From an uncultured Clostridia bacterium (GTDB lineage: Bacteria > Bacillota > Clostridia > Christensenellales > UBA1242): DNA of 64,000 bases. The stretch is taken from NCBI GenBank assembly GCA_944376905.1, contig CALWEA010000006.1:3563-67562 (forward strand), in the 5' to 3' direction. This document shows positions 24,696 to 58,637 of the stretch, one piece after another. The position numbers and the translations under genes were made by a program. How positions within the stretch are numbered: position 1 is the first letter of the stretch; each line of letters opens with the position of its first letter. The notes under the pieces were generated by a model. That model made no database searches and was not told the origin of the DNA. It saw only the letters and a program-made list of their open reading frames with translations.

Positions 24696-26057
24696 CTACA
24701 TCTCAAAATCTTTTTCTCTTTTCTTTCTTTTCTCTTTTAGTTTTTCAAGTTCACAAATCCTTTGTTCTATTTCTTCATCTGTCATTTTGTCTCTTGAAAA
24801 TTCCTCGACTTGTTCTTTCTGCTTTTCTTGAATTTTTGTGTTAAGTCTATCAGTTGCTTCTCTTACATAATCGCTATTGACAGAATTATAAACTGTGATT
24901 GTTGTTTTAACATCTCTATGTCCTAAAAGTTGTTGGATAACTTTTGGATTTTCGTTCATTTCAAAAAGCATATTAGAAAAAGTGTGCCTTAATCCGTGAA
25001 AATGAATATCGAATTTATCTAGTCCATTTCTTCTTTTAAATCTATCAAATATCTTTCTAGTTCCCGAATAAGTCCTATAACTTCCATCATCGTTAGCAAA
25101 CACAAAAGATGTAGGAGATGTCAAAGTAGCAGTCACATCAGGATTAGTTTTTTGTCTATCATACTGCTTATCTTTCCACTGTCTTAAAGTTGCTATGACA
25201 ATATCGGCAACAGGTATTTCTCTTACACTGCAAGTTGTTTTCGTATCACCAATGACTGTTATTCGGTCTTTAATATTGCCTTGTTCATCAAACTTAGGCA
25301 CTTGTGTTATTGCTCTTTCAACTTTTATTGTTTTATTGTCAAAGTCTATGTCTTTCCATTTTAAAGCAAGAGCCTCACCAATACGAAGTCCCGCAAACAT
25401 AAGAGTAATGCAAAGTGGCTTTATAAAATTTGCTTCATCTTTATTTAAAGCATCTAAAAATTTATCCCTAATCTCTGGTGGCATTGCTTTATATTTTTCA
25501 TCATCATTTGCTTGATAAATATTCCTTTTGCCTTTAATTTTTACTTTAAGTGTAGGATTTACAAGTATCCATTTGTTATCAATTGCATATTCAAAAAATT
25601 GATTTAATAAGTGTTTACATTTTTTGACGGTATCATTACTATATCCTTGTTCCATTAAATTGTTAACTAATTTTTGTATAGTATAGTTATCTATTTCATA
25701 AACTTTCATTTTGCCTATTAGTGGAGCAATATGCAATTTGAAATTTCTAATGTTCCCTTCAAATGTTCGTGAACTTACAGCACTCTTTTTAAAAGTCATA
25801 AGATATTCAAACATCAAACTTTCTATGTTGTTTTGCTCAACTAAATCATACGAATTACTTTTTATTCTACCACTTATTTCAGAAAGTTTTTTAACTATTT
25901 CTGCTCTAGATTTTCCATAAATTGTCTTTCGTATAATCTTTCCATTTTCATCATAGCCCATCGTTAGTGCTCCGCCCCAACGACCATCACTTCTTTGAAA
26001 AATTGAACCTTCATTATTTGCTCTACGAGTTCTCTTAACTGCTTTCTTTTTAGCCAT
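24696..26057 (-). CDS. Tyrosine recombinase/integrase with N-terminal arm-binding-type domain
   Basis: Carries NNEGSIFQRSDGRW... (AP2-like arm-binding N-terminus), LRIGEALAL, HGLRHTF and LLGHRDVKTTITVY catalytic-region motifs. The ATG overlaps the xis stop (ATGGCTAA). Confidence 0.9.
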   Translation of the reverse strand: MAKKKAVKRTRRANNEGSIFQRSDGRWGGALTMGYDENGKIIRKTIYGKSRAEIVKKLSEISGRIKSNSYDLVEQNNIESLMFEYLMTFKKSAVSSRTFEGNIRNFKLHIAPLIGKMKVYEIDNYTIQKLVNNLMEQGYSNDTVKKCKHLLNQFFEYAIDNKWILVNPTLKVKIKGKRNIYQANDDEKYKAMPPEIRDKFLDALNKDEANFIKPLCITLMFAGLRIGEALALKWKDIDFDNKTIKVERAITQVPKFDEQGNIKDRITVIGDTKTTCSVREIPVADIVIATLRQWKDKQYDRQKTNPDVTATLTSPTSFVFANDDGSYRTYSGTRKIFDRFKRRNGLDKFDIHFHGLRHTFSNMLFEMNENPKVIQQLLGHRDVKTTITVYNSVNSDYVREATDRLNTKIQEKQKEQVEEFSRDKMTDEEIEQRICELEKLKEKRKKREKDFEM

Positions 26058-26304
26058 TTTGCACCTCACTTTGAGCATTGTTGAGTGTTAGCCAAGTCAC
26101 AAAATTTAGCACACTTACAACTTGTCTTTTCCCGACTTTTGTTGTTGGGAAAGTTTTGCTTCGCATAAGATTTCTCACATTATCTCTGCCAAGTCCTGTG
26201 ATTTTGATAAGGTCCTCACAGTCTAAAAAATCTTTGCCATATTTTAAAGAAATTCTATTCACTTCGCTTTGTATAAGTTCGTTTAAATTGATTGTATTTT
26301 GCAT
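26050..26304 (-). CDS. Excisionase-like / MerR-type HTH DNA-binding protein
   Basis: 84 aa with ITGLGRDNVRNLMRSKTFPTTKVGKRQVVSV. Translationally coupled upstream of int. Paralogs sit at the same position in E2 and E3. Confidence 0.7.
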   Translation of the reverse strand: MQNTINLNELIQSEVNRISLKYGKDFLDCEDLIKITGLGRDNVRNLMRSKTFPTTKVGKRQVVSVLNFVTWLTLNNAQSEVQNG

Positions 26305-26416
26305 TTAAGTCCTCCTAAAAAATAAAATATCTTTCTATGTTTAAATAAAAAATTCTATATTTCTTTTCTATTTTTAATTGATTTTTTAAACTATGATTTG
26401 ACAATTTCAACACAAG

Positions 26417-26544
26417 AAATGGGTGTTCCCATTTGCTTACACAAAGGAAGAAAACGAGTCAAAAAATGTGTCATAAGAAAATGCTTGTAAAATAAGGATT
26501 TTCTTAGCATTTTTGTCAAAAAGCGTTTCTTCCGCTTATCCTGT
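26417..26544. promoter_or_regulatory. Conserved noncoding block between relaxase and xis: hairpin AAATGGG-N4-CCCATTT (26417-26434) and 20-mer GTTTCTTCCGCTTATCCTGT (26525-26544)
   Basis: Both elements recur at the equivalent position in E2 (43938-43954; 44050-44069) and E3 (57229-57246; 57344-57363). Confidence 0.6.
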
Positions 26545-26692
26545 ATGTCGTCAAAGCAAAATCTGACTCATTCGAAAACACAAAATTCTTTGTATTTTCT
26601 CATTCTAACGATTTGCTTTTCCTCTTCCCAAAAATTCTTGCAAGCAAGTATTTTCGGGAGCCCTTTTGGATATAAGTTCGTCATAGCAAACA

Positions 26693-27871
26693 CTACATTT
26701 CGTATTCATTTCTTTCTCTATAAGCTTCAAGTTTTTCAAAAAATCTTTGAAATTCTATCATCTCATATTGCTCTTGCTGTTTGTAGTAATCTAAACAAGA
26801 GAACAAATATTCAAGTTGTCTTTTTCTCTGTCGTTTCTTGAAAAATCTATCTCGCTTTGTGTGAGTTGTTATGCTGTCTAATTTGTCTTTAATCTTGCCA
26901 ATTTCGAGTGCTGTTTGAATTGTCTTATTGCCAAGCCTTCGCATTAATTCATTGTGATAAATCTCTGGGTCATACTTGTCTGGTATGTGTTTGTAATTTT
27001 TGTTTTGCCAAATTTTAAGATTTAAAATTTGAGTTTTGTAGTCAAGATATTTCAATTTCATTTCTTTGTTTGAATAGATAATACTTTCGGTCAGTTTATC
27101 AACTTCGTTTTTAAGAAACTCCATATTTTCGCTGTCATAACTAACTCTTCCTGTCTTTGGTATTTGTGAATATAACTTCAAAAACTTTCTTTTAAGCGAC
27201 CGTGTCATTTCAAAAATATTAGCGCTTCCATTAAACTCTTCTTTTAAATCTTTTCGCAATTTGACAATCTCGGCAGTTTTGTTTGTGAGCGCTTTTTCAA
27301 AGATAAGTTTGCTTGTGATTAAAACATCTTTTGGTATCTTTCCAGAATGATAGGAGAGTGTTCTATTATTCTTCATAAACTGTGGTTCTTTCTCAAAAAA
27401 TGATATGTGGATATGCTTGTTTTCGGTGTTCTCGTGTAGTCCTGCATACCAAACAATGTTGTCTTTATCAAGTCCTGCACGAGTAAAGAATTTTGGCAGC
27501 TCTTTCTTTAAAAAGTTGTAGGCTTGCTCATAATCTCTGCAATACTCGTCACCAAATTCTTCACGAAAAGAAATCACACAATCCCATATACAACTTTGAG
27601 TGTCCCTTAACATTTCTCTTAACCCTCGTTTCTCATCATCACTTAAAAGACCTTTCGAACTAAACACACCGCAAGACTTTTCACTGTTGCCAACATATTC
27701 AGTGTAATCTTTTGGAACGCTGTCAAGACTACCTGTGTCAACATAACTGACATAGTTATAACTGCCATTGCAACTTAAAAATTCTCGCTTACGAATTTTA
27801 TCTTCTTGCTTTGTGTTGTATTTATCACTTGGCTTGTAATACTTGCAAATAAAAACAATGTTATCTGTCAT
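26693..27871 (-). CDS. Relaxase-like mobilization protein (His-triad H-x6-H-x-H)
   Basis: WYAGLHENTENKHIHISFFEK has the spacing of the HxDExxPHxH relaxase motif. The N-terminus is Tyr-rich. Preceded by a coupled RHH gene. Four paralogs in the window. Confidence 0.65.
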   Translation of the reverse strand: MTDNIVFICKYYKPSDKYNTKQEDKIRKREFLSCNGSYNYVSYVDTGSLDSVPKDYTEYVGNSEKSCGVFSSKGLLSDDEKRGLREMLRDTQSCIWDCVISFREEFGDEYCRDYEQAYNFLKKELPKFFTRAGLDKDNIVWYAGLHENTENKHIHISFFEKEPQFMKNNRTLSYHSGKIPKDVLITSKLIFEKALTNKTAEIVKLRKDLKEEFNGSANIFEMTRSLKRKFLKLYSQIPKTGRVSYDSENMEFLKNEVDKLTESIIYSNKEMKLKYLDYKTQILNLKIWQNKNYKHIPDKYDPEIYHNELMRRLGNKTIQTALEIGKIKDKLDSITTHTKRDRFFKKRQRKRQLEYLFSCLDYYKQQEQYEMIEFQRFFEKLEAYRERNEYEM

Positions 27872-28098
27872 CTTTTCACACTCTCATAGATTGCATTAAC
27901 AACATCTTTGATTTCGTCAATTCCTTCCAAAATCTCATCTTCTTTACTGTCCTTGTCGGCGAACTGCTTTAAACACGCATTTATAAACTCGTTAATTGAC
28001 CTGTATCGGCTTTTTTGATAAATCTCTTGTAATTTATCTAAGAGCTTCAAATCGTGGATTCTGAGCATATTCTCGCACTTAATTTTGTCTGACTTCAT
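27868..28098 (-). CDS. Ribbon-helix-helix-type relaxosome accessory protein
   Basis: 76 aa with LRIHDLKLLDKLQEI...SINEFINACL (beta strand plus two helices). ATGA overlap with the relaxase gene and strong GGAGGAA SD. Confidence 0.55.
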   Translation of the reverse strand: MKSDKIKCENMLRIHDLKLLDKLQEIYQKSRYRSINEFINACLKQFADKDSKEDEILEGIDEIKDVVNAIYESVKR

Positions 28099-28175
28099 AC
28101 TTCCTCCTTTTTAGTTTTAGATTTTGAGTTTAAATTTAATTTTACATTTCACACCTCCTTTTAAATTATTTTACT

Positions 28176-28385
28176 ATTCTCGCATTATCAACATTTGATA
28201 ATGCGGAAATAGTTTTCGCAAAGATTTTAACATTGTCGCTGTATCAACATTTGATACAGCGGGAAAACTTTTTCAACTTTTTTACACTTTAACATTCTCG
28301 CTGGCTCACCATTTGAACCTGCGAGAAATATTTTTCAAATTTAATTTACCATAGTCGCGTGTTCACCGTCTGAACACGCGGAAAA
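28176..28385. repeat. Array of four spaced hairpin units (stems at 28181-28205, 28237-28261, 28297-28325, 28356-28380)
   Basis: Units have the form ATTCT-CGC-N4-TCAA-CAT-TTGA-N4'-GCG-GAAA. The N4 differs between units but stays complementary. Unit spacing is 56-62 bp. Confidence 0.85.
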
Positions 28386-28692
28386 ATTTGTTAAGAAAAA
28401 ATATCTCTGCTTCTGCAAAGATATTAGTCCCTCTACTTATATAACCAACACTTTTTTAATTTTGTGGGGTCATTTTGAGCCTTTTTTTTAAAATAATTTA
28501 AAAAATTTTTACATAACAAAAAAAGAAGCAAGCAAAAACTTACTTCTAACAATGCAAAAGAAAACTTTTCTTTATTTTAATTTCTTTTGAAAGTACATTT
28601 TTCAACACAAACAAAAAATAATATTATTATATAAAATAATAAAAGAGTGTTATAGCAATTTGCCTTTAACACTCTTTTTGTTGTTTGTTAAT

Positions 28693-29589: not shown

Positions 29590-30285
29590 TTAGAAAACCA
29601 CCGGATAGTCCGGTGGTTCCGTGGAGGTTTACCGTTGAGTAAAAATACCTCCTATGATATAATATTTTTGTAGTCTGCCAAGAATACAAAAATATTTAAT
29701 AGGAGGTATGTCATGAAAGACACAAATAGTTTAGCACACAGCTCGTGGAATTGCAAGTATCATATAGTTTTTGCACCTAAATACAGAAGAAAGGTATTTT
29801 ATGGAGAAAAAAGACATGAAATAGGTGCAATTCTACGAGATTTGTGTGCTTGGAAAAATGTTCAAATCATAGAAGCAGAAGCATGCCCAGATCATATACA
29901 TATGCTTGTGGCAATCCCGCCTAAATACAGCGTAGCTGGATTTATGGGTTATCTAAAAGGTAAAAGTAGCGTATTGATTTATGCAAAATATGCTAATATG
30001 AAATTCAAGTATAGAAATAGAGAATTTTGGTGCCGTGGCTACTATGTAGATACGGTCGGAAAGAATACAAAAAAGATAAAAGAATATATCGCAAACCAGT
30101 TAGCAGAAGATAAAAGAATGGAACAAATGACAGTGTATGAAATAGTAGACCCATTTAGTAAGAAATAAAGGTTTGCGTAAATGCAACCGTGCCGGCAGGC
30201 TACTAACGACGCGATTTCGCGTCGCAAAGAACAGAGGGTTTTACCCTCAAATGAAAAACCACTAGTTTTACTAGTGGATTTTTAT
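29590..30285 (+). mobile_element. IS200/IS605-family insertion sequence (IS200-like, tnpA only)
   Basis: About 0.7 kb unit with a Y1 transposase gene. Subterminal hairpins lie at 29595-29617 and 30259-27, each preceded by GAAAA(A)CCAC. Extra 3' hairpins lie at 30208-30223 and 30234-30248. Exact ends were not determined. Confidence 0.7.
29713..30168 (+). CDS. tnpA: IS200-family Y1 (HUH) transposase
   Basis: Carries HSSWNCKYHIVFAPKYRRK, HIHMLVAIPPKYSV (HUH) and the RGYYVDTVG tyrosine region. Length 151 aa. Confidence 0.9.
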   Translation: MKDTNSLAHSSWNCKYHIVFAPKYRRKVFYGEKRHEIGAILRDLCAWKNVQIIEAEACPDHIHMLVAIPPKYSVAGFMGYLKGKSSVLIYAKYANMKFKYRNREFWCRGYYVDTVGKNTKKIKEYIANQLAEDKRMEQMTVYEIVDPFSKK

Positions 30286-34929: not shown

Positions 34930-36126
34930 TTACATTTCAAAATCACTACTTAAATATCCTTGTTCAATCAATGTTTTAATTCTCATCTCTTCAAGCGTAT
35001 TCATATAATCTTGAAATGCTTTAATAGTCTCGTATTCAACCTTTGAATTAAGATATAAACACTCATCAATTTCTTTTATCAACTTGCGTTTTTGAATGCG
35101 TTTTTCTACCAAATTTTTAGCATTCAATTTTAATCTATCGTTTTCTTTAAGTTTTAAATTTTTAGCACTTTCAATGACAAGATTGCCAAGTCTTCGATAG
35201 ATATCATTCATCATTTTATCGCCAACACTTTGAATAGGTTTATCATACCCGTTACGCCTGCAATAGTTGTTCACAAGTTCATCTTTTTCTTTCACCATTT
35301 CATCAAAATCTTGTTTGTAAAGTGATATATTTGAATTGTGTTTAATGATGTAGTTTGAAATATTATCAACCTGTGATTTTAAATTTTGCATACTTTCAGA
35401 ATTGTAAAAAGTGGGCTTATTTTGTGGAATTTGATTTGCAAGACTTATTAGCATATTCTTTAATTTAAGACTTGAAATCCCGCTTATTTCCTCTTTAAAA
35501 CTTTTTGTTAAATTAGTTCTTAACTTAATCTCTCGTGCTTTAAAGTCGGTTGCTATAAGTTCAATATTTGCCTTAAACTCGTCCATTGCCTTTGATGATA
35601 TTCGGCCACGAGAAAAACCTTTTTCATTACCTCTAATTCGCAAAGGTTGTTTCTCAAAAAAGACTATGTGAATATGCCTGTTATCAGTGTTTTCGTGAAG
35701 CCCTGCAAACCATTCAATGTTGTTAGGATTAAGTCCTGCTCGTTTGAAATATTTAGGCAATTCACTCTTAACTAGATTGTAAGCTTGCTCAAAATTTGCA
35801 CACCATTTTTTGCCAAACTTCTCTTCAAAAGAAATAATACCGCTCCAAATAACTGACTTTGTTTTTCTTAAATCTTTTCTCACTTTTGCAATATCTTCAC
35901 TTTTCATCTTACCATTTTGATTAAATATTCCAGATGATTTTGAATTATTGTTTGAATACTCGACAAAATCAAGTTTTTGTAAATCCTTAATACCCGTTGC
36001 AATATATTTTAAATAATCACTATATTTGTTTGAAGAATAATAATCTCTCTTGTCCTGCATTTTCTTATCTTTGTAGTGGGGTAGAAAGAACTCTTGCATA
36101 TACACAACATTAGGAACACTATTCAT
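34930..36126 (-). CDS. Relaxase-like mobilization protein (paralog, module B1)
   Basis: WFAGLHENTDNRHIHIVFFEK. Same architecture as 26693-27871 and ends in DFEM. Confidence 0.65.
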   Translation of the reverse strand: MNSVPNVVYMQEFFLPHYKDKKMQDKRDYYSSNKYSDYLKYIATGIKDLQKLDFVEYSNNNSKSSGIFNQNGKMKSEDIAKVRKDLRKTKSVIWSGIISFEEKFGKKWCANFEQAYNLVKSELPKYFKRAGLNPNNIEWFAGLHENTDNRHIHIVFFEKQPLRIRGNEKGFSRGRISSKAMDEFKANIELIATDFKAREIKLRTNLTKSFKEEISGISSLKLKNMLISLANQIPQNKPTFYNSESMQNLKSQVDNISNYIIKHNSNISLYKQDFDEMVKEKDELVNNYCRRNGYDKPIQSVGDKMMNDIYRRLGNLVIESAKNLKLKENDRLKLNAKNLVEKRIQKRKLIKEIDECLYLNSKVEYETIKAFQDYMNTLEEMRIKTLIEQGYLSSDFEM

Positions 36127-36577
36127 TTAACAACTCTCGCAAATGGTTTTGTTTTTCTTCTTCAAGTCCATACTCATCAAGTGGAGTATATTTCCAATTG
36201 TTTGTGTAGTTGTATATATTGATATTGCTAATTTTATTTAAAAGTTTAGTTATTAAGTTCAAAAGCGATTGATTAGTTTTAATCTCAGCATTTGTTTGAA
36301 CATAGTCCATTTTTTGCCTGCCCATAATATTTGCAAGTTTTTCATCTATGTTTTGCAAATATTTTCTTATCTCCGAAAAGTTTATACTTTGATTTATAAC
36401 ATTATCTCCAAGCAGTTTATCCGCACCAACCAAAGCAAAATACTTTACCATATCACTTTTGCTGTCAAACTTATCTGCAAACATTTTAATTGCTCTTTCA
36501 AAAACCTTGTTTTCTTCTTCATCATACACCCGAAACAAATAACAATTCTTTAAATCTTTTGTTTTTATTCTTGCCAT
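36119..36577 (-). CDS. Relaxosome accessory-type protein (about 150 aa, RHH-like N-terminus)
   Basis: Overlaps the relaxase start. GGGAGG SD lies before ATG 36577. N-terminal YLFRVYDEEENKVFERAIKMF...MVKYFALVG. Confidence 0.5.
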   Translation of the reverse strand: MARIKTKDLKNCYLFRVYDEEENKVFERAIKMFADKFDSKSDMVKYFALVGADKLLGDNVINQSINFSEIRKYLQNIDEKLANIMGRQKMDYVQTNAEIKTNQSLLNLITKLLNKISNINIYNYTNNWKYTPLDEYGLEEEKQNHLRELLNE

Positions 36578-36675
36578 AAAACCTCCCAATAATTTTTAAA
36601 GTCTTTCTATATCTTTTCCTATTTCAAATTAAAGGGACAATAATTTTCACCTCCTTTTAATTTACAACAAAAAAA

Positions 36676-42031: not shown

Positions 42032-42076
42032 AATCGCTAAAAGGCCGAAAAATAAAGGCTTTTAGCGATTTTTTTG
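42032..42076 (+). terminator. Terminator hairpin after the tRNA fragment
   Basis: AATCGCTAAAAGGCC ... GGCTTTTAGCGATT followed by a T-run. Confidence 0.65.
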
Positions 42077-42120
42077 TTTTTCGAAATTAAATTTTCAAAA
42101 CAAGAAAAATTGCAAATATT

Positions 42121-42269: not shown

Positions 42270-42273
42270 GTTT

Positions 42274-43626
42274 TCACATCTCAAAATCTTTTTCTTTTTT
42301 CTTTCGGCGAAGTTCCTTTTGTCTTAAAAGTTCTTCAAGTTGTTCTTCTAATTCTTCATCAGTAAGCTCATCAGCCTGTTGTGATTTTTCTTGCGTAAAG
42401 TTTTTACTAATACTTTCATTCAGTCTGTCTGTTGTTGCTCTCACATATTCATTGTTCACACTGTTGTAAACTGAAATTGTTGTTTTTACATCTCTATGCC
42501 CAAGCAGTTGTTGGATTGCTTTTGGATTTTCATTTAACTCAAAAAGCATATTTGAAAATGTGTGTCTTAAAGTGTGAAAATGAATTTGATAATCATTTAG
42601 GTTATTTCTTTTCTTAAATCTATCAAATATTTTTCGTGTGCCTGAATATGTTCTAACACTTCCGTCATCGTTGCAAAATATATATCTATCACTTTTAATA
42701 AGGTCAAAGTTTATTTCTATGCTTTTAATTGATTGTTTGTTTTTCCATTCTTGCAAAGAATTAACCACAACATCTGTGATTGGTATTGTTCTAACAGAAC
42801 AAGCTGTTTTGGTATCGCCAACAACAGTTACTCTTTTTGTAATATTTCCATCGCTATCAAAACTAGGCACTTGTGTTATGCCACTTTCTATGCTTAAAGT
42901 TTTCTTTTGTTCATCAAAGTTATCCCAGCGAAGTGCTAAAACCTCTCCAATGCGTAATCCTGCAAATAGTAGTGTTACGCATAAAGGTTTTAAAAAATTG
43001 CTTTCATCTTCATTAAGTGCTGTAAAAAATTTCTCTCTGACTTCTGGTGTCATAGCCTTGTATTTGTTTTTATCATTATTTTGCACTCTGTCTTTTGTTC
43101 TAACTTTTACTTTTGCTGTTGGATTAAATTGCACCCATTTGTTATCTATTGCATAATCAAAAAATTGATTGAAAATAAATTTCACTTTCTTAATAGTGTT
43201 GTTATTATACTCCTCATCTATCATAGCATTTACAACTTTTTGTATTGCGGTTGTGTCTATTTCATAAACTTTCATTTTGCCAAGCATTGGTTCTATGTGT
43301 AATTTAAAATTTCTAATATTACCTTCAAAAGTTCGTGGGCTTACCGCACTCTTCTTGAAAACCAACAGCCACTCTTTCATAAGTTCTCCAAAGGTTTTCT
43401 TTTCTAAAATTTCATAAGAATTGCTTTGTAGTCTGCCAGAAATTTCACTTAATTTTTTTGCTATTTCTGTTTGGTTTTTCCCATAAATAATTTTACGAAT
43501 TGGCTTGCCTTCTTCATCAAATCCCATACTCACATAACCAGCCCAACGACCATCTTTTCGTTGAAAGATTGAACCCTCATTATTGGCTCGTCTTGTTTTG
43601 TTTACGACTTTGTTTTTCTTAGCCAT
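42274..43626 (-). CDS. Tyrosine recombinase/integrase (E2)
   Basis: Paralog of 24696-26057 with HTLRHTF and LLGHRDVKTTISVY. The ATG overlaps the xis stop. Confidence 0.9.
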   Translation of the reverse strand: MAKKNKVVNKTRRANNEGSIFQRKDGRWAGYVSMGFDEEGKPIRKIIYGKNQTEIAKKLSEISGRLQSNSYEILEKKTFGELMKEWLLVFKKSAVSPRTFEGNIRNFKLHIEPMLGKMKVYEIDTTAIQKVVNAMIDEEYNNNTIKKVKFIFNQFFDYAIDNKWVQFNPTAKVKVRTKDRVQNNDKNKYKAMTPEVREKFFTALNEDESNFLKPLCVTLLFAGLRIGEVLALRWDNFDEQKKTLSIESGITQVPSFDSDGNITKRVTVVGDTKTACSVRTIPITDVVVNSLQEWKNKQSIKSIEINFDLIKSDRYIFCNDDGSVRTYSGTRKIFDRFKKRNNLNDYQIHFHTLRHTFSNMLFELNENPKAIQQLLGHRDVKTTISVYNSVNNEYVRATTDRLNESISKNFTQEKSQQADELTDEELEEQLEELLRQKELRRKKKEKDFEM

Positions 43627-43879
43627 TCGCCACCTCACTTGTGTTGTTTTTAAGTGTTAGCCAAGTGACAAAATTAAGCACACTTACGACTTGTCTTTTA
43701 CCAACTTTTGTTGTTGGAAAATCTTTGCTACGCAAGAGTTGTCTTACATTATCTCTGCCAAGCCCAGTGATTTTCATAATATCTTCACAGTCTAAAAAAT
43801 CTTTATCATATTTAGTTGAAATTCGGTCAACTTCCGATTGAATTAAATTGTTAATATTAAGTTGTTGATTGTTGTTCAT
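43619..43879 (-). CDS. Excisionase-like HTH protein (E2)
   Basis: Paralog of 26050-26304. ATG 43879 matches the paralog N-termini; the ORF-track extension to 44002 is unlikely. Confidence 0.7.
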   Translation of the reverse strand: MNNNQQLNINNLIQSEVDRISTKYDKDFLDCEDIMKITGLGRDNVRQLLRSKDFPTTKVGKRQVVSVLNFVTWLTLKNNTSEVANG

Positions 43880-43937
43880 ATTTACTCCACGTGTTTTAAA
43901 TTTTGTATTTTCTAATTCAATCTCTATATAAAAAAGG

Positions 43938-44069
43938 AACTGGGTTTCCCAGTTGCCTAAAAATAAGAAAGAAAAATAGATGCACAAAATGTAACATCGC
44001 AAAAAGCCCGATAAAATGGGCTTTTTAGCGAAATTTTGGGCAACTAAATGTTTCTTTCGCTTATCCTGT
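43938..44069. promoter_or_regulatory. Conserved noncoding block (hairpin AACTGGG-TTT-CCCAGTT; 20-mer GTTTCTTTCGCTTATCCTGT)
   Basis: Counterpart of 26417-26544. The hairpin stem carries compensatory changes relative to E1 and E3. Confidence 0.6.
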
Positions 44070-44100
44070 TTTATAAATCTCTATTTACTGCGTCAGCAAA

Positions 44101-45306
44101 CTACATCTCAAAATTGCTATTTCTACTGTTCAAATACTCTTGCTGCTTAGCATATCGTTCTCGTTCTTCGCACCAATATTTAAAGTTTAGCATTTCTTGT
44201 TCTTCTTGCTTTGCGTAATAATCAAGTAGGTCCAAAAGATAATCAAGTTCCTTTGCTCTCTGTTGTTTTTTGAATGCTTTTTCTTTTCTAGTGTAGGTTT
44301 GCATTTGTTCTATTTCATCATTTGCTTTTCCTATTTTTAATGCTGTTTGAATTGTCATATTTCCAAGTCTTCGCATTAAGTCTTGATGATAAATATCTGC
44401 ATTGTATTTGTCTGGAACATGCTTGTATTGTTCTTGTTGCCAAATCTTATATTCGTTAATTTTAAGTTTGTAATCCAAATATGAATTTTTAATTTGTGGG
44501 TTAGAATATAAAACACATTCGGTAGTGTCATCAACTTTCTTTCTTAAAAATTTCATATTCTCACTATCATAACTTGTTCTTCCGTTTGCTGGTATTTCCC
44601 TATACAATTCAAGCAATTTTTTCTTCATCGTTCTTGTCATCTCATAAGGCGACAATCCAATTTTATATTTCTCATTTAAATCTTTTCTTGCTTTCACAAT
44701 CTCGGCAGACTTGTTTGTTAAGGCTCTTTCAAAGATAAGTTTACTTGTTAGCAAAACATCTTTATCTATCTTTCCAGAGTGAAATTTCAGTTTGCCACCA
44801 TTAGCATAAAATTTCGGCTCTTTCTCAAAAAACGATAGATGAATGTGTTTGTTTTCAGTGTTCTCGTGAAGCCCTGCATACCAAACAATATTGTCTTTAT
44901 CAAGTCCTGCTCGTTTAAAAAATTTTGGTAATTCTTTAACTAAAAAATTATGAGCTTGCTCGTAATCTCTGCAATACTCATTTCCAAATTCTTCTCTAAA
45001 AGATATAACACAGTCCCAAATACAACTCTCGGTTTCTCGCAACTGCTTTCGTAAATTCCGCTTTTGTTGTTCGTTTAACAATCCGTCTTTACTAAAAACT
45101 CCGCAAGATTTTTCGGTGTTGCCAACATATTCGGCATAGTCCTTTGGCAGTTTGTTTTCTGCTCCGGTATCAACATAACTTACATAGTTATAGCTTCCAT
45201 TACAAGAAACAAAATCTCGTTTTTGAATTTCTTTTGAATTCTTGTCTGGATTATATTTTTCTTTTGGTTTGTAGTAATAACATTTAAAAACTATGTTGTC
45301 TGTCAT
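44101..45306 (-). CDS. Relaxase-like mobilization protein (E2)
   Basis: WYAGLHENTENKHIHLSFFEK; ends in NFEM. Confidence 0.65.
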   Translation of the reverse strand: MTDNIVFKCYYYKPKEKYNPDKNSKEIQKRDFVSCNGSYNYVSYVDTGAENKLPKDYAEYVGNTEKSCGVFSKDGLLNEQQKRNLRKQLRETESCIWDCVISFREEFGNEYCRDYEQAHNFLVKELPKFFKRAGLDKDNIVWYAGLHENTENKHIHLSFFEKEPKFYANGGKLKFHSGKIDKDVLLTSKLIFERALTNKSAEIVKARKDLNEKYKIGLSPYEMTRTMKKKLLELYREIPANGRTSYDSENMKFLRKKVDDTTECVLYSNPQIKNSYLDYKLKINEYKIWQQEQYKHVPDKYNADIYHQDLMRRLGNMTIQTALKIGKANDEIEQMQTYTRKEKAFKKQQRAKELDYLLDLLDYYAKQEEQEMLNFKYWCEERERYAKQQEYLNSRNSNFEM

Positions 45307-45536
45307 CTGTTTTTAACCTTTTCAAAGATTGCGTTTGTGGTATCTTCTAACGCTTCTAATTTTTCAAAAATTTCATCTTCTCGTGTGTCCTTAAAAGCAT
45401 AAGCTTTTAGGATAGTGCAGACAAAATCGTTCATACTTTTGCACTGCGAAAGTTTGTATTTTTCTTGCAATTTGTTTAACAAATCTAAATCTCTTATTCG
45501 TAGCATATTTTCGCTTTTAATTGTGTCTGATTTCAA
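45303..45536 (-). CDS. RHH-type relaxosome accessory protein (E2)
   Basis: Paralog of 27868-28098 with an ATGA overlap with the relaxase gene. Confidence 0.55.
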   Translation of the reverse strand: MKSDTIKSENMLRIRDLDLLNKLQEKYKLSQCKSMNDFVCTILKAYAFKDTREDEIFEKLEALEDTTNAIFEKVKNR

Positions 45537-51914: not shown

Positions 51915-52853
51915 CTATCTCATCTTTCTCCAACACTTTTCTTTCATAAAAGTTTTGATTGTGTTTATGTCTTTGTTTTCGTAATATTCGACTAAAAGTT
52001 TTTTGAATTCTGGCACTTCTTTTTCTGGAATGACTATCAAGCCTTCACCCTGTGAAATTAAGAAGTGATTTGCAAAGATAACTGAAGCTCTTTTGTTGCC
52101 ATCGTTGAAGATTTGTGTTTTCATTGCATATAAACAAAGGTCTATTGCTTTATCTATGTTTGAGATGTTGCTTGCTATGATTTTATTAATAGCTTCTTTA
52201 ACATCAATTTCATTTGGTATTGGTGGGACATAACTACTTCCGCCAATTGAAACCGGTACACCTCTTATTCTTCCGCCTTGTTCGTAAAAGCCTTCATTTA
52301 CAAGTCCTGCAATATAAGAAAGAATATAATAATCGGTTTTTGCCCCTATAACATCTTTATCCATAATGAATTCCCAAGCATGTTTAAGATTTAGAATTTT
52401 TTGAACATCGCTTGCTCTCATTCCGCTAACTTTGCCATTTTCTATAATAGTTTCTGTTTGTGGATATGTTGTTGCAACACCTTCCAAAATTGCTTGGTCA
52501 TAAATGTTGACTTTCATATTTGCTCTTGCAAAATCCAAATTTAATTGAACTGCTGGCGACAACTCGCTAGATGTGTAGTTAAGTAAAGCAAGTTCCTTTT
52601 CAATTTGTCTAATTGCTTTTTGCAACTCCCGTGCTTCCTTTGAATATCGGAGTAGTGTTTGATAAAGCTCATCAGAAAATTTATCTATATATTGAGAAGT
52701 AAGTTTGCCTAGCTCACGCTTTCTCATATATAGATAATTTCCACTTGTGCGTTCCTTAATTTCTGGCGTTCCTGTATATGGAATTAAATTTAATCTGGTT
52801 TGCAAGTCAGCTTTTTTTCTTAACAATTCTTGAATTTTTTCAAAGTTACTCAT
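51915..52853 (-). CDS. Fic/DOC-fold protein with degenerate active-site motif
   Basis: GGRIRGVPVSIGGSSYVPP and QIFNDGNKRASV align with the Fic core HPFxDGNGRxxR, but the catalytic His is Gln and GNG is GNK. Confidence 0.65.
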   Translation of the reverse strand: MSNFEKIQELLRKKADLQTRLNLIPYTGTPEIKERTSGNYLYMRKRELGKLTSQYIDKFSDELYQTLLRYSKEARELQKAIRQIEKELALLNYTSSELSPAVQLNLDFARANMKVNIYDQAILEGVATTYPQTETIIENGKVSGMRASDVQKILNLKHAWEFIMDKDVIGAKTDYYILSYIAGLVNEGFYEQGGRIRGVPVSIGGSSYVPPIPNEIDVKEAINKIIASNISNIDKAIDLCLYAMKTQIFNDGNKRASVIFANHFLISQGEGLIVIPEKEVPEFKKLLVEYYENKDINTIKTFMKEKCWRKMR

Positions 52854-53012
52854 TTAATGCTCCTTTTGTTTGGGGAATAATTATGTTTGTATTATATACA
52901 TTTATTCCCCAAAAGTCAACTATTTATGCCATCAAGTATAAATTAGTTTTTAAACAATTTACATAGTTCTAGGCAGTTTAAAATCACCAAAAATAATAAA
53001 AACCACCTAAAA

Positions 53013-53145
53013 AGGTGTCAAAGGGTGTCAAATTTTATTTATGGTTGACGCTAGTTTTATTTTTGTATGCTTAAAAGCCTTGAAATATAAGAAAAAATGG
53101 ACATAGGGCTCAACCCACTTTGCATAGGGAAATAGATTGGTAAGG
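53013..53145 (+). promoter_or_regulatory. attR-like end of E2: two GGTGTCAA arm repeats (53013-53031) and decayed core ..AGGGCTCAA..TTGGTAAGG (53103-53145)
   Basis: Same repeat type as 42121-42269. ATAGGGCTCAA also precedes the core at 41967-41988. Repeat-to-core spacing of about 105 nt matches E1. Confidence 0.6.
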
Positions 53146-53184: not shown

Positions 53185-53260
53185 GCTGTTGTGGCACAGT
53201 CGGTAGCGCACTGCCTTGGTAAGGCAGAGGTCACGGGTTCAAGTCCCGTCAACAGCTCCA
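53185..53260 (+). tRNA. tRNA-Thr (anticodon GGU), second copy, CCA encoded
   Basis: Acceptor GCTGTTG/CAACAGC and anticodon stem CTGCC/GGCAG, with compensatory differences from copy 1. The D and T arms are identical to copy 1. Confidence 0.9.
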
Positions 53261-53487: not shown

Positions 53488-55353
53488 TTAAATTTCAATG
53501 AAATTAAGTATTTCTTCCTTTAATTGTTTATCTTCATTTATTTGTAATAATAATTTGTTCACATAAAATGAAACATTTGCAAAACCAACTATTTTTACAA
53601 CATCAGATATAATCTGCTTTCCTGGTACAATTTTCATAAGTTGGTCATAATCTTTATTTTTTATAGACTCCAACAGATTATTTTCAAAAGATTGATATTC
53701 TTCTAAAAATTTAGTTTTATTGGATTCCGATATAATGTCTAAATCATTTTTTACGTCATCAAGTTTTTTGAATTTATTTTGTAATTGAATTTTTCTCAAT
53801 AGTTTTGTGGCAAAATCTTGTCTTATTCCATCTATCTTACTATTAATCTTAGAAATAATTTTAGCTTTTATTTCATCTATTGATTTGCCATTTGAAAGAA
53901 TATTAGACATAGATATTAAGCAGCATGGTAAAATGAATATATTTTCAACTTCATTAACCCCTAGTACTGTTATGTTTTTTAACTTTAATCTATTAATTTC
54001 TTCTTCATTTTTAAAGTCGTTGTCGACTATGCCTTTTGCTTCTTTTTTGAATGTCAACTTATTACTATTAAGTAATTCTGTGTGTTTTTCAACATTTTCG
54101 CAACCATGTATGGGAACTATTTCAAAATCAGGAAATAAAATTTCATAAAGTTGACAATCTAGGGATGCTCTATCTTCACCTTCACAGAAAATTATATTAT
54201 CGTTAGTTCCTTCAATGTTTAAAATTACTTCAAAAGGCAAATCTTCAAAATCTTCAAATTTCTTAAAGTTCCATTCATTATATTTGTTTGTTTTTTCCAA
54301 ATATATTAATTCAACATTTTGTCTACTTTGGATAAATTGAATGTTATGAGTTGCAAAGATAAATTTTACATCAGTCCTTTCTTTTTCTAACAAATCAAAT
54401 AATTTTCGCATTAAAGCACCATTTAAATGATTTTCTGGTTCATCTATAAAAATGAATGAATTAGCTGGTGATAATAAAACGGCTAACAATATAAAAATTG
54501 AACTCCTTTCACCGTCTGAAGCATGAGATAGCAAATATGGTGTAATGTTTTCTTCACCTAACGATAAATTACCCATTTCATTTAAAAGTAACTTTCTATC
54601 TAAACCCAATTGATTAAACACTGAAATAACTTTATTTTTTAAAGTTTCATCAAAACTTACACCATTACTTAATTGTTTATAATCTTCACTTGCTAGAAGT
54701 TTTCCCAAGAAGAATAATGACTTTCCGTCAGTATGTTCGTTTATGGCATGTTTTAAATTGATATCATTTTGATTAAAATAAGGATTTTCAGCATATCTAA
54801 TATCTCTAGTAGCAGGCAAAACAATTGTATTTGAATTTAAAAATTCTGATGAGATTTTATTTAATAATGTTGTTTTTCCTGCACCATTTTTTCCAAATAA
54901 AATATAATTCTTATCCCCATACTTAAAATGCTCATATAATTCAAATGTTGAATTTCTTGTAACAGAATTATAAAGATAATTAATAAAGTCCCAGACTTGA
55001 CCATACGAATATTCATTGCTAGCAATGATAGTATGATTATTAAATCTCTCTGCGCTATTCTTTATTTGATTTAATCTGTTTATAAAATAATTTTTGTATT
55101 GTTCATTGAATTGTACCCATAACGAATTATTTACATCAACTAAGAAAGTAATTTCATCAAGTTCAACTTTAATGGATTTTAGCATGTTATTAAAATCAAA
55201 TTCTTTTAAATTATTAATCTTTTCTTTATATGTTGCTGAAAAATTATTGATATCTAAACTTTTAATCAATTTTTGAATTTCTATGATTTTATCAACAGCT
55301 TGTTTTAAAGTGTTTGTTAAGTTATTTTCTATTTCATATTGTTTTATATCCAT
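53488..55353 (-). CDS. ABC-type ATPase fused to DUF4435/Toprim-like domain (OLD/PARIS-like defence candidate)
   Basis: Carries FGKNGAGKTTLLNKI, SDGERS and FIFIDEPENHLN, then IIFCEGEDRASLD...IHGCENV...GIVDND...VNEVENIF, which is typical of DUF4435. TGCTATAAT lies just upstream. Start candidates are 55353, 55368 and 55374. Confidence 0.7.
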   Translation of the reverse strand: MDIKQYEIENNLTNTLKQAVDKIIEIQKLIKSLDINNFSATYKEKINNLKEFDFNNMLKSIKVELDEITFLVDVNNSLWVQFNEQYKNYFINRLNQIKNSAERFNNHTIIASNEYSYGQVWDFINYLYNSVTRNSTFELYEHFKYGDKNYILFGKNGAGKTTLLNKISSEFLNSNTIVLPATRDIRYAENPYFNQNDINLKHAINEHTDGKSLFFLGKLLASEDYKQLSNGVSFDETLKNKVISVFNQLGLDRKLLLNEMGNLSLGEENITPYLLSHASDGERSSIFILLAVLLSPANSFIFIDEPENHLNGALMRKLFDLLEKERTDVKFIFATHNIQFIQSRQNVELIYLEKTNKYNEWNFKKFEDFEDLPFEVILNIEGTNDNIIFCEGEDRASLDCQLYEILFPDFEIVPIHGCENVEKHTELLNSNKLTFKKEAKGIVDNDFKNEEEINRLKLKNITVLGVNEVENIFILPCCLISMSNILSNGKSIDEIKAKIISKINSKIDGIRQDFATKLLRKIQLQNKFKKLDDVKNDLDIISESNKTKFLEEYQSFENNLLESIKNKDYDQLMKIVPGKQIISDVVKIVGFANVSFYVNKLLLQINEDKQLKEEILNFIEI

Positions 55354-55418
55354 AAATGTACCTTCCATTTTCACGTATTATAGCACATTAACACGAAAAA
55401 GTTAATACCTTTACAAAA

Positions 55419-56812
55419 TTACATCTCAAAATCTTTTTCTTTTTTACGCTTTCTTTCTTGACGTTCTTCCATAAGTTTTTGTAGCATATCATCAAATTCT
55501 TCATCTGTCATATCTTTAACAAGTTTTTCTTTTCGTTCTTCAATAACTTCTTCTCTTATGTTTTGGTCAATTAACATTTGTTCTTCTTTAACTTTTTCAT
55601 TAAACTTTTCTGTTGTTTGCCTTACATATTCACTATCCACAGAGTTATATACTGTGATTGTAGTTTTTACATCACGATGTCCTAAAAGTTGTTGGATAAC
55701 CTTTGGATTTTCGTTCATCTCAAATAACATATTAGAAAAAGTATGTCTTAATCCGTGAAATCCAATGTGATATTTCTTCAAATCATTTCTTTTCTTAAAT
55801 CTATCAAATATCTTTTTTGTTCCTGAATAACTTCTAACAGAGCCATCATCGTTAGCAAATATAAAAGAAGTCCTAGATATTAAATCTCCTGTGACTTCTT
55901 TATTTGTGTTTTGTCTTAATATTTGCTTTTCTCGCCATTGTTTTAAAGTTTCAACAACTATGTCTGCTATCGGTATTTCTCGGACACTACAAGTAGTTTT
56001 TGTGTCTCCGACGATAGTTACACGACTTGTTACCTTACCATCACTATCAAACTTTGGTTCTTGCGTAATTGCTTGTTCAACTTTTAACGTTTTGTTTGCA
56101 AAGTCAACATTTTCCCATTTTAGAGCAAGTGCTTCGCCAATACGAAGTCCAGAGAACATTAAGCAAATGCAAAGCGGTTTTATGAAATTAGCTTCATCTT
56201 TATTTAATGCTTCCAAAAATTTAGTTCTCACTTCGGGCGGTAGTGCCTTATATTTTTCTTTCTTGTTTGGAGCTTTGTCTTTTGTTCGTATTTGTACTTT
56301 TTTAGGGTAGGATTAACTGATACCCATTTGTTATCTATTGCATATTCAAAGAATTGACTTATCATATGCTTGTTTTTCTTTATTGTATTATTGCTATACT
56401 TTTCATCAATAAGTTTGTTTATCACTTTTTGAATTACAAAAGTATCTATATCATAAATTTTCATATTGCCAATTTGTGGCTCTATGTGTAATCTAAAATT
56501 TCTCATAATACCTTCAAAAGTTCTTCCTGTGACCGAACTTTTTTTAAACACCAATAACCAATCTGTCATTAGTTCTCCAAAACTCTTACTTTCAACTAGT
56601 TCATAAGAATTGCTTTTAATTCTACCGCTAACTTCGGCGAGTTTTTTAGCAACTTCGGTTTGACTATTTCCATATACTGTCTTTTTCTTTTGTTGACCTT
56701 TATCATCATATCCAACAGTTATACTGCCAACCCATTTGCCATCACTTTTTCTTTGAAAGATACTTCCTTCATTATTACTTCTTCTAATTTTTGACTGAGT
56801 TCTTTTAACCAT
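55419..56812 (-). pseudogene. Tyrosine integrase of E3 split by a frameshift in a homopolymer
   Basis: The 194-aa and 270-aa ORFs together align with the full-length paralogs. The frames diverge at the A6 run (plus-strand T6 at 56298-56303), and a 7th A restores ...NPTLKKVQIRTKDKAPNKKEKYKALPPEVRTKFLEALNKDE. Confidence 0.8.
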
Positions 56813-57071
56813 TCTTCGCCTCGCTTGTATTGTTATTCAATGTCATCCAAGTCACAAAGTTAAGAACACTTACTACTTGTCTTTTACCAACTTTTGTGGT
56901 AGGAAAATTTTTACTTCTCATCAAATTTCTAACGTTATCTCTTCCAAGACCTGTAATCTTAATTAGGTCTTCACAATCAAGAAAATCTTTATTGTATTTA
57001 GTTGTTAAACGGTCAACTTCCGATTTTATTAAGTTGTCAATATTAAGTTGTTTGTTATCATTAATAATCAT
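56805..57071 (-). CDS. Excisionase-like HTH protein (E3)
   Basis: Paralog of 26050-26304, with the ATGGTTAA overlap with the int start. Confidence 0.7.
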   Translation of the reverse strand: MIINDNKQLNIDNLIKSEVDRLTTKYNKDFLDCEDLIKITGLGRDNVRNLMRSKNFPTTKVGKRQVVSVLNFVTWMTLNNNTSEAKNG

Positions 57072-57228
57072 TTAATTCTCCTCATAAATTTAAATCTTTG
57101 TGTTCTATTAAGTTGTAATTTTCTATTCTAAATTTTTGAGAAAGAATGTTCTTCTTTCTGCTTTTCTATTCCTAATATCTTCTGTAGCTTTAAGCATAAG
57201 AAGTCGGCAGCTTACTGCCATAAAACGA

Positions 57229-57363
57229 AAATGGGTATTCCCATTTGTCGTAAAGATAAGGAAGAAAACAATAGATGCAGTTTTGTAGCATATAAAAAAG
57301 TCCTATTTTATAGGGCTTTTGGCTACTTTAAACTATAATCTATGTTTCTTCCGCTTATCCTGT
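57229..57363. promoter_or_regulatory. Conserved noncoding block (hairpin AAATGGG-TATT-CCCATTT; 20-mer GTTTCTTCCGCTTATCCTGT)
   Basis: Counterpart of the E1 and E2 blocks. Confidence 0.6.
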
Positions 57364-57404
57364 TTGATTAAAACTCTAAAAATGAGTCGTTTTGCATACA
57401 CTTT

Positions 57405-58637
57405 TTACATCTCAAAACCACCATATTCTTTAGCCAATTTTTGCTTTTCTCGGTCAGATTGAATTCTATAATACTCTTGCTGTTTAGCATAAGCTTCGCT
57501 TTGCTTTTGACGATATATAAAGTTCTTAATTTCCATCTCATCGCACTTCGCATAATATTCAAGTAAATCCAAAAGTTTGTCCCATTCTCGTTGTCGCATT
57601 GCTTTCTTGTAAGCTTTGTATTGAGCAGTTTTAATATCTAGTTTTTCAAGTTCATCGTGCAGTTTTCCAAGTTCAATAGCAGTGTTGATTGTTATATTTC
57701 CAAGTCGTCTAAATAGGTCTTTTTTATAGTTAGAACCTTCTTTGTAATTTCGTTCATCTTTCCATTCTTCAAACTTTTTAAGTGCGTTTTCAAACTCCCA
57801 ATAAGTATCTCTTGTTTGGGTGTTTTTGGTTAAGATAAACTCGGTTACTCCGTCAACATCTTTTTTAACTCTTAACATATTTTCGCTATCGTAAGAATGT
57901 CTACCGTCTTTTGGTAGGATAGTGTAAAGATTTAAAAGTAATCGCTTTAATTTTCTTGCCATATCAGTTCTACTCATTAAAGCATTGTAAGAATAAAGCA
58001 TATCTTTTCTTGCTTTAAGTATTTGAGCTGTTGGCTTGGTTAGTGCTTTTTCAAATGTAAATTTTGTTGCAATTAGTAGGTCTTTTGAAATAGTGCCAGA
58101 GTGATATTTTAACTTTCCACCATTGTCAAAATATAATGGCTCCTTTTCAAAAAATGAGATATGAATATGTTTGTTTTCGGTGTTCTCGTGAAGTCCTGCA
58201 TACCAAACAATATTGTCGCTATATAATCCAGCTCTATTAAAAAACTTTGGAAGTTCTTTCTTTAAGAATTTATATGCTTGGTCATAATCTCGACAATATT
58301 CATCTCCAAAGTTTTCCCTAAAAGAAATTATCATATCCCAAATAACACTTTGAGTTGTTTGTAGTTGGTGCCTTAAATCTAACTTTTGTTCATCATTAAG
58401 TAATCCATCTTGGTTAAATGCTCCAAATGATTTTTCTTTGTTGGCTATATATTGCTCGTAATCGGAAGATACATTTTCACTTGCTCCTGTGTGAACATAG
58501 TTAAGATAACTATAACTATCTTGACAACTAACAAAATCTCTGTGTTCTGCCATTTCGGGATTGTCAGTGTAATGTTCTTTTGTTTGGTAAAATCTCAACT
58601 TAACAATTACATTATTGGTCTGTGGTTCGTTTGTCAT
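57405..58637 (-). CDS. Relaxase-like mobilization protein (E3)
   Basis: WYAGLHENTENKHIHISFFEK; ends in GFEM. Confidence 0.65.
   Translation of the reverse strand: MTNEPQTNNVIVKLRFYQTKEHYTDNPEMAEHRDFVSCQDSYSYLNYVHTGASENVSSDYEQYIANKEKSFGAFNQDGLLNDEQKLDLRHQLQTTQSVIWDMIISFRENFGDEYCRDYDQAYKFLKKELPKFFNRAGLYSDNIVWYAGLHENTENKHIHISFFEKEPLYFDNGGKLKYHSGTISKDLLIATKFTFEKALTKPTAQILKARKDMLYSYNALMSRTDMARKLKRLLLNLYTILPKDGRHSYDSENMLRVKKDVDGVTEFILTKNTQTRDTYWEFENALKKFEEWKDERNYKEGSNYKKDLFRRLGNITINTAIELGKLHDELEKLDIKTAQYKAYKKAMRQREWDKLLDLLEYYAKCDEMEIKNFIYRQKQSEAYAKQQEYYRIQSDREKQKLAKEYGGFEM

Follow-up and report, generated by a model that had tools for sequence, protein, structure and literature searches.

A terminal Glu-Met dipeptide common to relaxases and integrases of mobilizable islands without a coupling protein in an uncultured Clostridia bacterium and related loci

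We analysed a stretch of 64,000 nucleotides from an uncultured Clostridia bacterium (contig CALWEA010000006.1, positions 3,563 to 67,562; here called the window), in which four relaxases and three integrases of integrative and mobilizable elements (IMEs) end in Phe or Tyr followed by Glu-Met. We found that the conserved unit of this tail is the dipeptide with its free carboxylate (E-M-COOH), that selection acts on the peptide and not on a DNA site, and that the tail marks enzymes of mobilizable elements that lack a type IV coupling protein (T4CP), not integrases and relaxases generally. We tentatively suggest, with somewhat less than even confidence, that E-M-COOH is a short linear docking tag by which IME enzymes engage a receptor of a helper element in trans, the likeliest receptor being the VirD4/TraG-type T4CP of co-resident MobL-type elements.

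Pfam assigns four proteins of the window to the MobL relaxases (PF18555) and three to the tyrosine recombinases (PF00589). In all six reading frames of the window [FY]-E-M followed by a stop codon occurs exactly seven times, each time at the end of one of these genes and always in an open reading frame (ORF) of the minus strand, while E-M followed by a stop makes up 11 of the 8736 stop triplets. An earlier, sequence-only reading of the window had noted that these seven proteins and no others end in (F/Y)EM, which the count bears out. It was also right that both glutamate codons are used (GAG in five tails and GAA in two) and that TAA, TAG and TGA all occur as stops. Its remark that the preceding residues differ holds for the relaxases and for homologues, but not for the three window integrases, whose 3' ends are identical over 18 nucleotides (GAAAAAGATTTTGAGATG) and which are 63-70% identical paralogues. 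The window relaxases are 32-65% identical to one another. Because the integrases and the relaxases are paralogues and the integrases have these 18 nucleotides in common, the seven tails represent only about two independent cases in the window, and not the seven that had been given weight. A test, and statistical weight, were therefore sought in homologues elsewhere.

The four relaxases score 79.6-100.6 bits against PF18555 (cut-off 28.5), with matches from about profile positions 3 or 38 to positions 339-380 of 383. In an alignment of 79 MobL sequences H147, H154, Y44, Y60 and Y246 are invariant and H156 is kept in at least 90%, with the motif HENTxNxHIH. Judged by these residues, the window relaxases have the histidine cluster and the N-terminal tyrosines that an HUH-type nickase should show. 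A Foldseek comparison of a relaxase model with the PDB gave no significant match, the hits of highest probability being the relaxase domains 4ht4 and 3l6t (0.6, E 0.25-0.35). The integrases score 85.8-91.1 bits against PF00589 (cut-off 27.1), and in 61 aligned integrases the residues R225, H351, R354, H377 and Y387 (R...HxxR...H...Y) are invariant. Integrase IntE3 is split by a frameshift near 56230 into an N-terminal part (56228-56812) and a C-terminal part (55419-56231), with the N-terminal Pfam domains in one ORF and the catalytic domain in the other. The split is either a pseudogene or a sequencing error, and the C-terminal tail is intact regardless. The gene of relaxase B1 is not followed by an integrase.

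The earlier reading had stated that its idea of a common tag would fall if homologues outside this genome lacked the tail; hundreds of them keep it, including those of elements with 50% GC. For relaxase B1 we compared 120 homologues with 48% identity or more; 113 of them are full-length, and 103 of these terminate in xEM (x = F, A, M, L, P, N or Y). Of the 120 homologues compared for integrase E2 (59% identity or more), 113 have the ending [F/M/Y]EM. Met at -1 and Glu at -2 hardly vary, with a positional entropy of about 1 bit or less, compared with 2.3-3.2 bits at positions -3 to -8 of the relaxases, and the segment ahead of the tail varies in length. Position -3 is usually F, Y or M, with L, A, P, N, E and I also seen, and position -4 is usually acidic. 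The conserved unit is E-M-COOH with a variable position -3, and not (F/Y)EM as first described.

The view that selection acts on the peptide and not on a DNA site was upheld in the homologues. Across 89 distinct tails the glutamate codon is GAA in 61 and GAG in 28, against 2340 and 702 elsewhere in the same genes, and the stop codon is TAA in 35, TAG in 29 and TGA in 25. When 3' ends and downstream DNA were aligned, we found no conservation beyond the coding tail. We place the constraint on the peptide because the glutamate codons follow the background, all three stops are used, the flanks are unrelated, and the preceding residues and their number vary. The tail is present in elements of 28% to 58% GC. 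One element with 50% GC has a relaxase ending in ...EEEAEM and an integrase ending in ...GAGDDGPEM, with wholly different preceding residues, and relatives of this integrase end in GGPEM, GSGPEM or K[SKR]DFEM. The tail occurs in three divergent subfamilies of tyrosine integrases, which are 23-28% and about 33% identical to the window integrase.

The carriers of the tail were surveyed in 137 loci from uncultured Christensenellales, Clostridia, Caccovivens and Onthoplasma genomes, supplemented with the contexts of 50%-cluster representatives of the relaxase family, altogether about 1.8 Mb of related loci (cited by L numbers). Counts refer to distinct sequences, and T4CPs were assigned by Pfam. 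None of the 16 MobL relaxases whose gene is followed by a VirD4/TraG-type T4CP gene ends in EM; their termini are EEGLLD, GVIEAE, GIIIL, LYEME and similar. The tail is found on 60 of the 62 MobL relaxases followed by a tyrosine integrase, the remaining two ending in EL, and on all four that are followed by a serine recombinase. It is carried by 63 of 72 tyrosine integrases of at least 400 amino acids and by all six integrase paralogues of 225-245 amino acids, which are devoid of the catalytic HxxR/H/Y residues. The serine recombinases (0/6) and the T4CPs (0/18) lack it, no accessory or excisionase gene of the survey loci ends in EM, and all other ORFs of at least 100 amino acids have it in 2 of 1550 cases. 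Nine integrases are exceptions: three run off a contig end, another three are truncated, one lies on a distant 'phage' contig (L138), and two belong to L158. The latter is the only conjugative element with integrases visible. Both lack the tail, and one of them matches an IME integrase with the end ...KKQEAEM at 34% identity along its entire length. The tail thus marks the enzymes of elements without a T4CP, and the claim that it is general to integrases and relaxases proved too broad.

For the relaxases, the relation between the tail and the T4CP is seen across a number of separate clades, in lineages of low and of high GC alike, and the tail is kept with a tyrosine recombinase, a serine recombinase or no recombinase seen nearby. 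In IME relaxases the motif L-[IV]-E-[EQ]-G-x-hydrophobic is still present, with a few residues ending in E-M (x-D-F-E-M) added after it. Many T4CP-linked relaxases end at or near this motif, and their acidic or hydrophobic termini (EEGLLD, GVIEAE, LYEME) are chemically akin to the tail. IMEs and elements with MobL and a T4CP occur together in single metagenome-assembled genomes (L054/L057, L048/L058, L050/L066, L002/L071), and metagenome 3300045596 is the source of both a tailed and a T4CP-linked relaxase. The MobL (MOB_L) relaxases of Firmicutes have RelLS20 of pLS20 as their founder (PMC5313138), and that study says nothing on the MobL C-terminus beyond His-tagging. The window relaxases fall into a MobL subclade of about 390-410 amino acids, and their closest plasmid proteins from cultured bacteria are MobP2/MobL of Bacillus (25-27% identical). 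Classical MobL representatives of about 430 amino acids are without the tail, as are the integrase matches in phage collections (at most 33% identical).

Several other origins of the pattern were considered and rejected. Chance is ruled out by the all-frame count in the window and by the rarity of EM among the 1550 unrelated ORFs. A DNA-site origin was rejected on the codon and stop usage and on the unrelated flanks, with a shift in stop codons as the sole oddity: in loci L001-L137 the genes ending in E-M are richer in TAG and TGA than other ORFs (TAA/TAG/TGA 53/40/32 versus 415/106/118), counted on sequences that are not independent of one another. A homologous C-terminal module common to both families was dismissed, as their similarity is limited to the last 2-4 residues. 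Those small ORFs that end in EM proved to be integrase fragments or antisense artefacts, and the 225-amino-acid pseudo-integrase was the only further tagged family found in the islands or helpers.

AlphaFold2 models indicate where the tail may lie on the protein. Relaxase E2 was modelled with a mean predicted local distance difference test score (pLDDT) of 88.8 and has a long helix at residues 340-397, after which the last four residues, NFEM, are non-helical and of low confidence. In integrase E2 an extension of about 60 residues after the catalytic tyrosine (393-449) was predicted as a low-confidence helix, with pLDDT below 50 over the last five residues. The tail is thus predicted to be a flexible, exposed tip, typical of a short linear motif on a flexible stalk. 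Substrate signals of type IV secretion systems (T4SSs) likewise lie in an exposed, unstructured C-terminal segment, and the last 4-5 residues are here non-helical with pLDDT below 50. The pattern of class II PDZ ligands (hydrophobic at -1 and -3) is fitted by FEM, YEM, MEM, LEM and IEM and poorly by AEM, PEM, NEM and EEM, and the loci showed no cytoplasmic PDZ protein.

From these findings we infer that the tail is a binding tag whose receptor would be supplied by a helper, with consequences for transfer. The tag, usually an acidic residue, F/Y/M and E-M, would form the outermost end of a flexible C-terminal helix or linker, and IMEs, having no T4CP of their own, would use it to reach the receptor of a co-resident conjugative element. 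On the relaxase it may bring the nicked DNA of the island to the mating pore of the helper. On the integrase and its inactive paralogue, the reason for the tag may be co-localisation with the pore or co-transfer: it could place excision beside the pore, send ready-made integrase into the recipient together with the DNA, or both. The strongest clue that recognition is by a helper-supplied factor is that the relaxase tail tracks the absence of a cognate T4CP whatever the recombinase. The presence of one tail in two unrelated enzyme families and in a dead integrase paralogue supports a shared tag as well. A more far-reaching version, which we consider unlikely, is that E-M is a portable hitchhiker signal that loads both the relaxase-DNA complex and ready-made integrase on the helper T4CP. 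The injected integrase would then integrate the island in the recipient ahead of any expression of its genes there, with the dead paralogue as an accompanying regulator or decoy.

Several observations weigh against a docking tag for a helper. No protein that reads the tail was found, and the receptor is deduced throughout. The relaxases of the conjugative elements themselves are without E-M, so that it is not a generic signal of that T4SS family, and one has to assume in addition that IMEs need a stronger or a different handle in trans. The serine recombinases of otherwise similar IMEs (L080, L142, L149) are untagged; tagging of the recombinase is therefore not obligatory. The contrast between integrative and conjugative elements and IMEs is based on a small number of clades and, for the integrases, on a single conjugative element. 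Some homologues have one or two residues past EM (EMK, EMS, EMY), which is awkward if the free carboxylate of the methionine is read. Finally, the known C-terminal signals of T4SSs are described as positively charged or hydrophobic and not as a strict dipeptide.

A C-terminal degron would explain part of the same evidence, and we regard it as rather unlikely. Relaxase, integrase and pseudo-integrase would be marked for an AAA+ protease (ClpXP, ClpCP, Lon or FtsH), making them short-lived, coordinating excision with nicking and sparing a non-replicating hitchhiker futile excision. As in known C-degrons such as ssrA (...LAA), the tail is a terminal, exposed signal of a few residues. It is found on all catalytic mobility proteins of the island and on the dead paralogue, and the integrase tails follow a basic stretch (RKKKEKDFEM). 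This recalls the basic C-terminus of MuA transposase, a recombinase of a mobile element, which is recognised by ClpX. However, the tags of five tmRNAs in the fetched loci end in MPCAA, MAIAA or LAYAA, and E-M, with its charged residue at -2, does not resemble such an ssrA-like xAA-COOH end. A degron also gives no obvious cause for the uniform lack of the tail in T4CP-linked relaxases and in the integrases of conjugative elements, which need control too, and the relaxase tail follows the absence of a T4CP and not a common regulatory module, whether a tyrosine recombinase, a serine recombinase or none lies nearby. Docking of both enzymes on a hub of host DNA metabolism, namely SSB, the beta clamp, a PcrA-type helicase or HU, seems unlikely to us. 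The terminal chemistry, acidic and hydrophobic with a free carboxylate on a flexible end, is also that of the SSB tail D-D-D-I-P-F and of phage T7 gp2.5 and gp4, two unrelated proteins that have a common acidic tail with terminal Phe for one partner. Moreover, the very different hosts (Christensenellales, RF39-like Bacilli and lineages of 50-58% GC) call for a partner that is either conserved or travels with the islands. Nevertheless, these tails end in P-F or D-F and not in E-M, which is confined to enzymes of mobile elements. The tails read [DE]-[FYM..]-E-M and match neither SSB D-D-D-[IL]-P-F nor the clamp motif QL[SD]LF, and the SSB-type pattern D-[DE]-x(0-2)-[ILM]-P-F is absent from all ORFs of at least 40 amino acids in the fetched loci. 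With a host hub, the lack of the tail in homologous relaxases and integrases from conjugative elements of the same hosts would also go unexplained, and no host protein among the 1550 flanking ORFs carries the tail.

An improbable alternative is binding of the tail to a product of the island itself, such as the ribbon-helix-helix (RHH) or 150-amino-acid accessory protein or the excisionase, or a role within the nucleoprotein complexes of the island, for instance a contact in trans that couples the intasome with the relaxosome. It would agree with the operon-like block in which the tagged genes lie (accessory gene, relaxase, excisionase, in some cases the pseudo-integrase, integrase) and with the F plasmids, where the RHH protein TraM binds a C-terminal tail. 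However, the upstream accessory genes vary, being RHH-like with 76-88 amino acids or different with 139-180, and a sigma-70 region-4-like gene is not constant. The relaxase tail persists without a tyrosine integrase or excisionase, and conjugative elements have homologous accessory genes while their relaxases are still tail-less. That the tail has no function as protein and reflects a nucleotide signal (attachment site, origin of transfer (oriT) or terminator), the context of termination, or descent or gene conversion is, in our judgement, very improbable indeed. The identical 18-nucleotide 3' ends of the window integrases and the preference of tailed genes for TAG and TGA would fit such an origin, and the overlap of the last relaxase codon with the ATG of the T4CP gene in T4CP-linked relatives means that, for this one family, the codon of the terminal Met may be a relic. 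Against it stand the background usage of synonymous Glu codons with all three stops, the unrelated flanking DNA, the retention of the dipeptide at 28% and at 50-58% GC in three separate protein families, its scarcity in other ORFs, and the lack of a conserved gene after the integrase. Among the functions proposed earlier, the shared docking tag remains the most economical, while its variants as an SSB-like tail or an ssrA-like degron found no support in the sequences.

Conjugative T4SSs are known to recognise relaxases and many other proteins by C-terminal or internal signals and to transfer them together with DNA (PMC8406263, PMC11288057). The E-M tail is similar to the signals of Agrobacterium VirB/D4 (positively charged tails), Legionella Dot/Icm and the F-plasmid 'conjutome' in that it is short and unstructured and in that unrelated proteins would address one coupling protein; the integrase tails also have a basic stretch ahead of them. 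Those signals are compositional, depending on charge or hydrophobicity, whereas E-M, the proposed signal, is a near-invariant terminal dipeptide. We know of no T4SS signal that is, like E-M, confined to mobilizable elements and absent from the relaxase of the helper. To our knowledge, there is also none that is common to a relaxase and an integrase. In F-like plasmids, about 15 C-terminal residues of the coupling protein TraD dock on TraM, and in the crystal structure a few C-terminal residues with their free carboxylate are involved. Relaxosome and coupling protein are thus coupled by C-terminal residues, as we propose for the islands. In F, however, the T4CP bears the tail and the accessory protein the pocket, whereas here relaxase and integrase bear the tail, and the T4CPs of the related conjugative elements have unrelated terminal sequences.

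A literature search found no description of the motif, in line with the earlier reading, whose author knew of none, and none of a C-terminal signal shared by relaxase and integrase. C-terminal docking or translocation tails are as such already known; what appears to be new is the near-invariant dipeptide, its sharing by relaxase, integrase and pseudo-integrase, and its restriction to elements without a T4CP. The recognition of mobilizable islands by a foreign T4CP is a gap of long standing, most of all in Gram-positive and uncultured gut bacteria, for which we know of no sequence-defined signal. A searchable tag of two residues would offer a direct experimental handle, and it would be a cheap bioinformatic marker to distinguish relaxases and integrases of hitchhikers from those of self-transmissible elements in metagenomes. 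If the integrases truly carry a transfer signal, it would become possible to test directly whether the integrase protein accompanies DNA in conjugation, which is an old question. The rules of transfer matter for gene flow in the gut microbiome since the islands carry a dense cargo of anti-phage and restriction genes.

The window has a GC content of about 28%, and from 23.5 kb on it holds three or more IMEs in tandem array at tRNA-Thr(GGT) (23553-64000). No gene or domain of a coupling protein or T4SS was detected by Pfam among its large ORFs. On their gene content the islands are classed as IMEs, with integrase and relaxase, repeats of tRNA-Thr and neither T4CP nor T4SS, which is the layout reviewed for such elements (integrase and relaxase, no T4SS, tRNA insertion; PMC5704250). 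The cargo is mostly related to defence and differs from island to island, and besides the genes listed in Table 1 it includes an SF1 helicase-nuclease. Some of the cargo is placed between integrase and tRNA.

Table 1. Positions of tailed enzymes, attachment sites, accessory genes and cargo in the window
Feature	Position	Strand	Remarks
tRNA-Thr(GGT), attachment site of the array	23553..23628	+	ARAGORN; second copy 53185-53260
tRNA-Thr 3' remnant	~41975-42042		direct-repeat family D7
Tyrosine integrase IntE1, first island	24696..26078	-	Pfam PF00589, PF14659, PF22022; C-terminus EKDFEM; tail F-E-M 24699-24707 (-), stop TAG 24696-24698
MobL relaxase A	26693..27871	-	Pfam PF18555, 80 bits; C-terminus NEYEM; tail Y-E-M 26696-26704, stop TAG
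76-amino-acid accessory gene	27868..28098	-	ORF list; overlaps start of relaxase A; no tail
Paralogues of the 76-amino-acid accessory gene	45303-45536 and 58612-58878		
MobL relaxase B1	34930..36126	-	Pfam PF18555, 100.6 bits; C-terminus SSDFEM; tail F-E-M 34933-34941, stop TAA
156-amino-acid accessory gene	36119..36589	-	no Pfam match; overlaps start of relaxase B1; no tail
Cargo: MmeI-like restriction-modification enzyme	38928-41684		
Tyrosine integrase IntE2	42274..43638	-	Pfam; C-terminus EKDFEM; tail F-E-M 42277-42285, stop TGA
Excisionase candidate (HTH_17-like)	43619..44002	-	weak PF12728 match; between relaxase E2 and IntE2; no tail
MobL relaxase E2	44101..45306	-	Pfam; C-terminus NSNFEM; tail F-E-M 44104-44112, stop TAG
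Cargo: Fic protein	51915-52853		
Cargo: ABC-ATPase/DUF4435 protein	53488-55374		
Integrase IntE3, frameshift-split	55419..56812	-	two ORFs; C-terminus EKDFEM; tail F-E-M 55422-55430, stop TAA
MobL relaxase E3	57405..58637	-	Pfam; C-terminus GGFEM; tail F-E-M 57408-57416, stop TAA
Cargo: fused EcoRI-type/C5 methylase	61696-63879		

The 76-amino-acid accessory protein looks ribbon-helix-helix-like from its sequence. The 156-amino-acid protein has 25% identity to L057:9468-9908 (E = 0.01), and its gene is syntenic with the gene of 146-180 amino acids that precedes MobL in conjugative elements. The gene between relaxase E2 and IntE2 probably encodes an excisionase, going by its domain match, and the same gene occupies the equivalent position in L143, L144 and L156. 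Four tandem copies, each with a palindrome (e.g. CGCATTATCAACATTTGATAATGCG) and at a spacing of about 49-62 nucleotides, occupy 28168-28391, immediately upstream of the accessory gene that precedes relaxase A; they could be an oriT or an iteron array. In the spacer between relaxase and integrase, shortly downstream of three relaxase genes, we found a conserved element of 30-48 nucleotides (GTTTCTTCCGCTTATCCTGT on the plus strand) at 26525-26572, 44048-44077 and 57342-57391, which might be a promoter or operator of xis-int or a part of oriT. Paired repeats TGTCAA(N4-5)TGTCAA lie near the attachment site/tRNA junctions and the stop of IntE2 (23812-23862, 41830-41880, 42097-42147, 42227-42277 and 52989-53039). 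They resemble arm-type integrase binding sites.

In the related conjugative elements the order of the module is a sigma-r4-like gene (L057, L139, L152), the accessory gene of 146-180 amino acids, MobL and the T4CP gene. In most of the 16 T4CP-linked relaxases the stop codon of the relaxase overlaps the start of the T4CP gene, as in L057:9905-13260, L139:6001-9365, L152:5001-8395 and L158:5001-8436 (4 nucleotides, e.g. GAATGA; up to 32 in L160). A putative surface protein of 1400-1600 amino acids follows the T4CP module in L057, L139 and L158. Extension of a conjugative-element locus by 2.6 kb in search of tagged T4SS proteins revealed nothing new.

The integrase catalytic-domain paralogue (222-245 amino acids, ending in [F/M]EM) belongs to one IME subfamily, in which it is flanked by the relaxase and a divergent integrase (L005:2678-3358, L036:2158-2844, L065:11460-12137, L073:4025-4762 and also L019). 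A second tyrosine recombinase of 311-312 amino acids, with an end of the ...GKMLIAN type and without the tail, is encoded a few genes upstream of the relaxase in L018-L020, L024, L026, L028, L063, L073, L078, L103, L112, L119, L120 and L130; in L112 and L130, the two loci annotated there, a sigma-70 region-4/KorA-like protein adjoins it. tmRNA genes are located within a few kb of islands (L046:8652-9050, L064:19068-19449, L104:15457-15838, L112:11686-12082 and L132:7991-8375), and the tmRNA may be a second integration target of the integrase family. The first island of the window also contains an ORF of 1014 amino acids without a Pfam match (30863-33907), which has 265-nucleotide repeats of 97% identity at a spacing of 450 nucleotides (31377-32091) and is adjoined by a transposase gene of the IS200 type (29713-30168).

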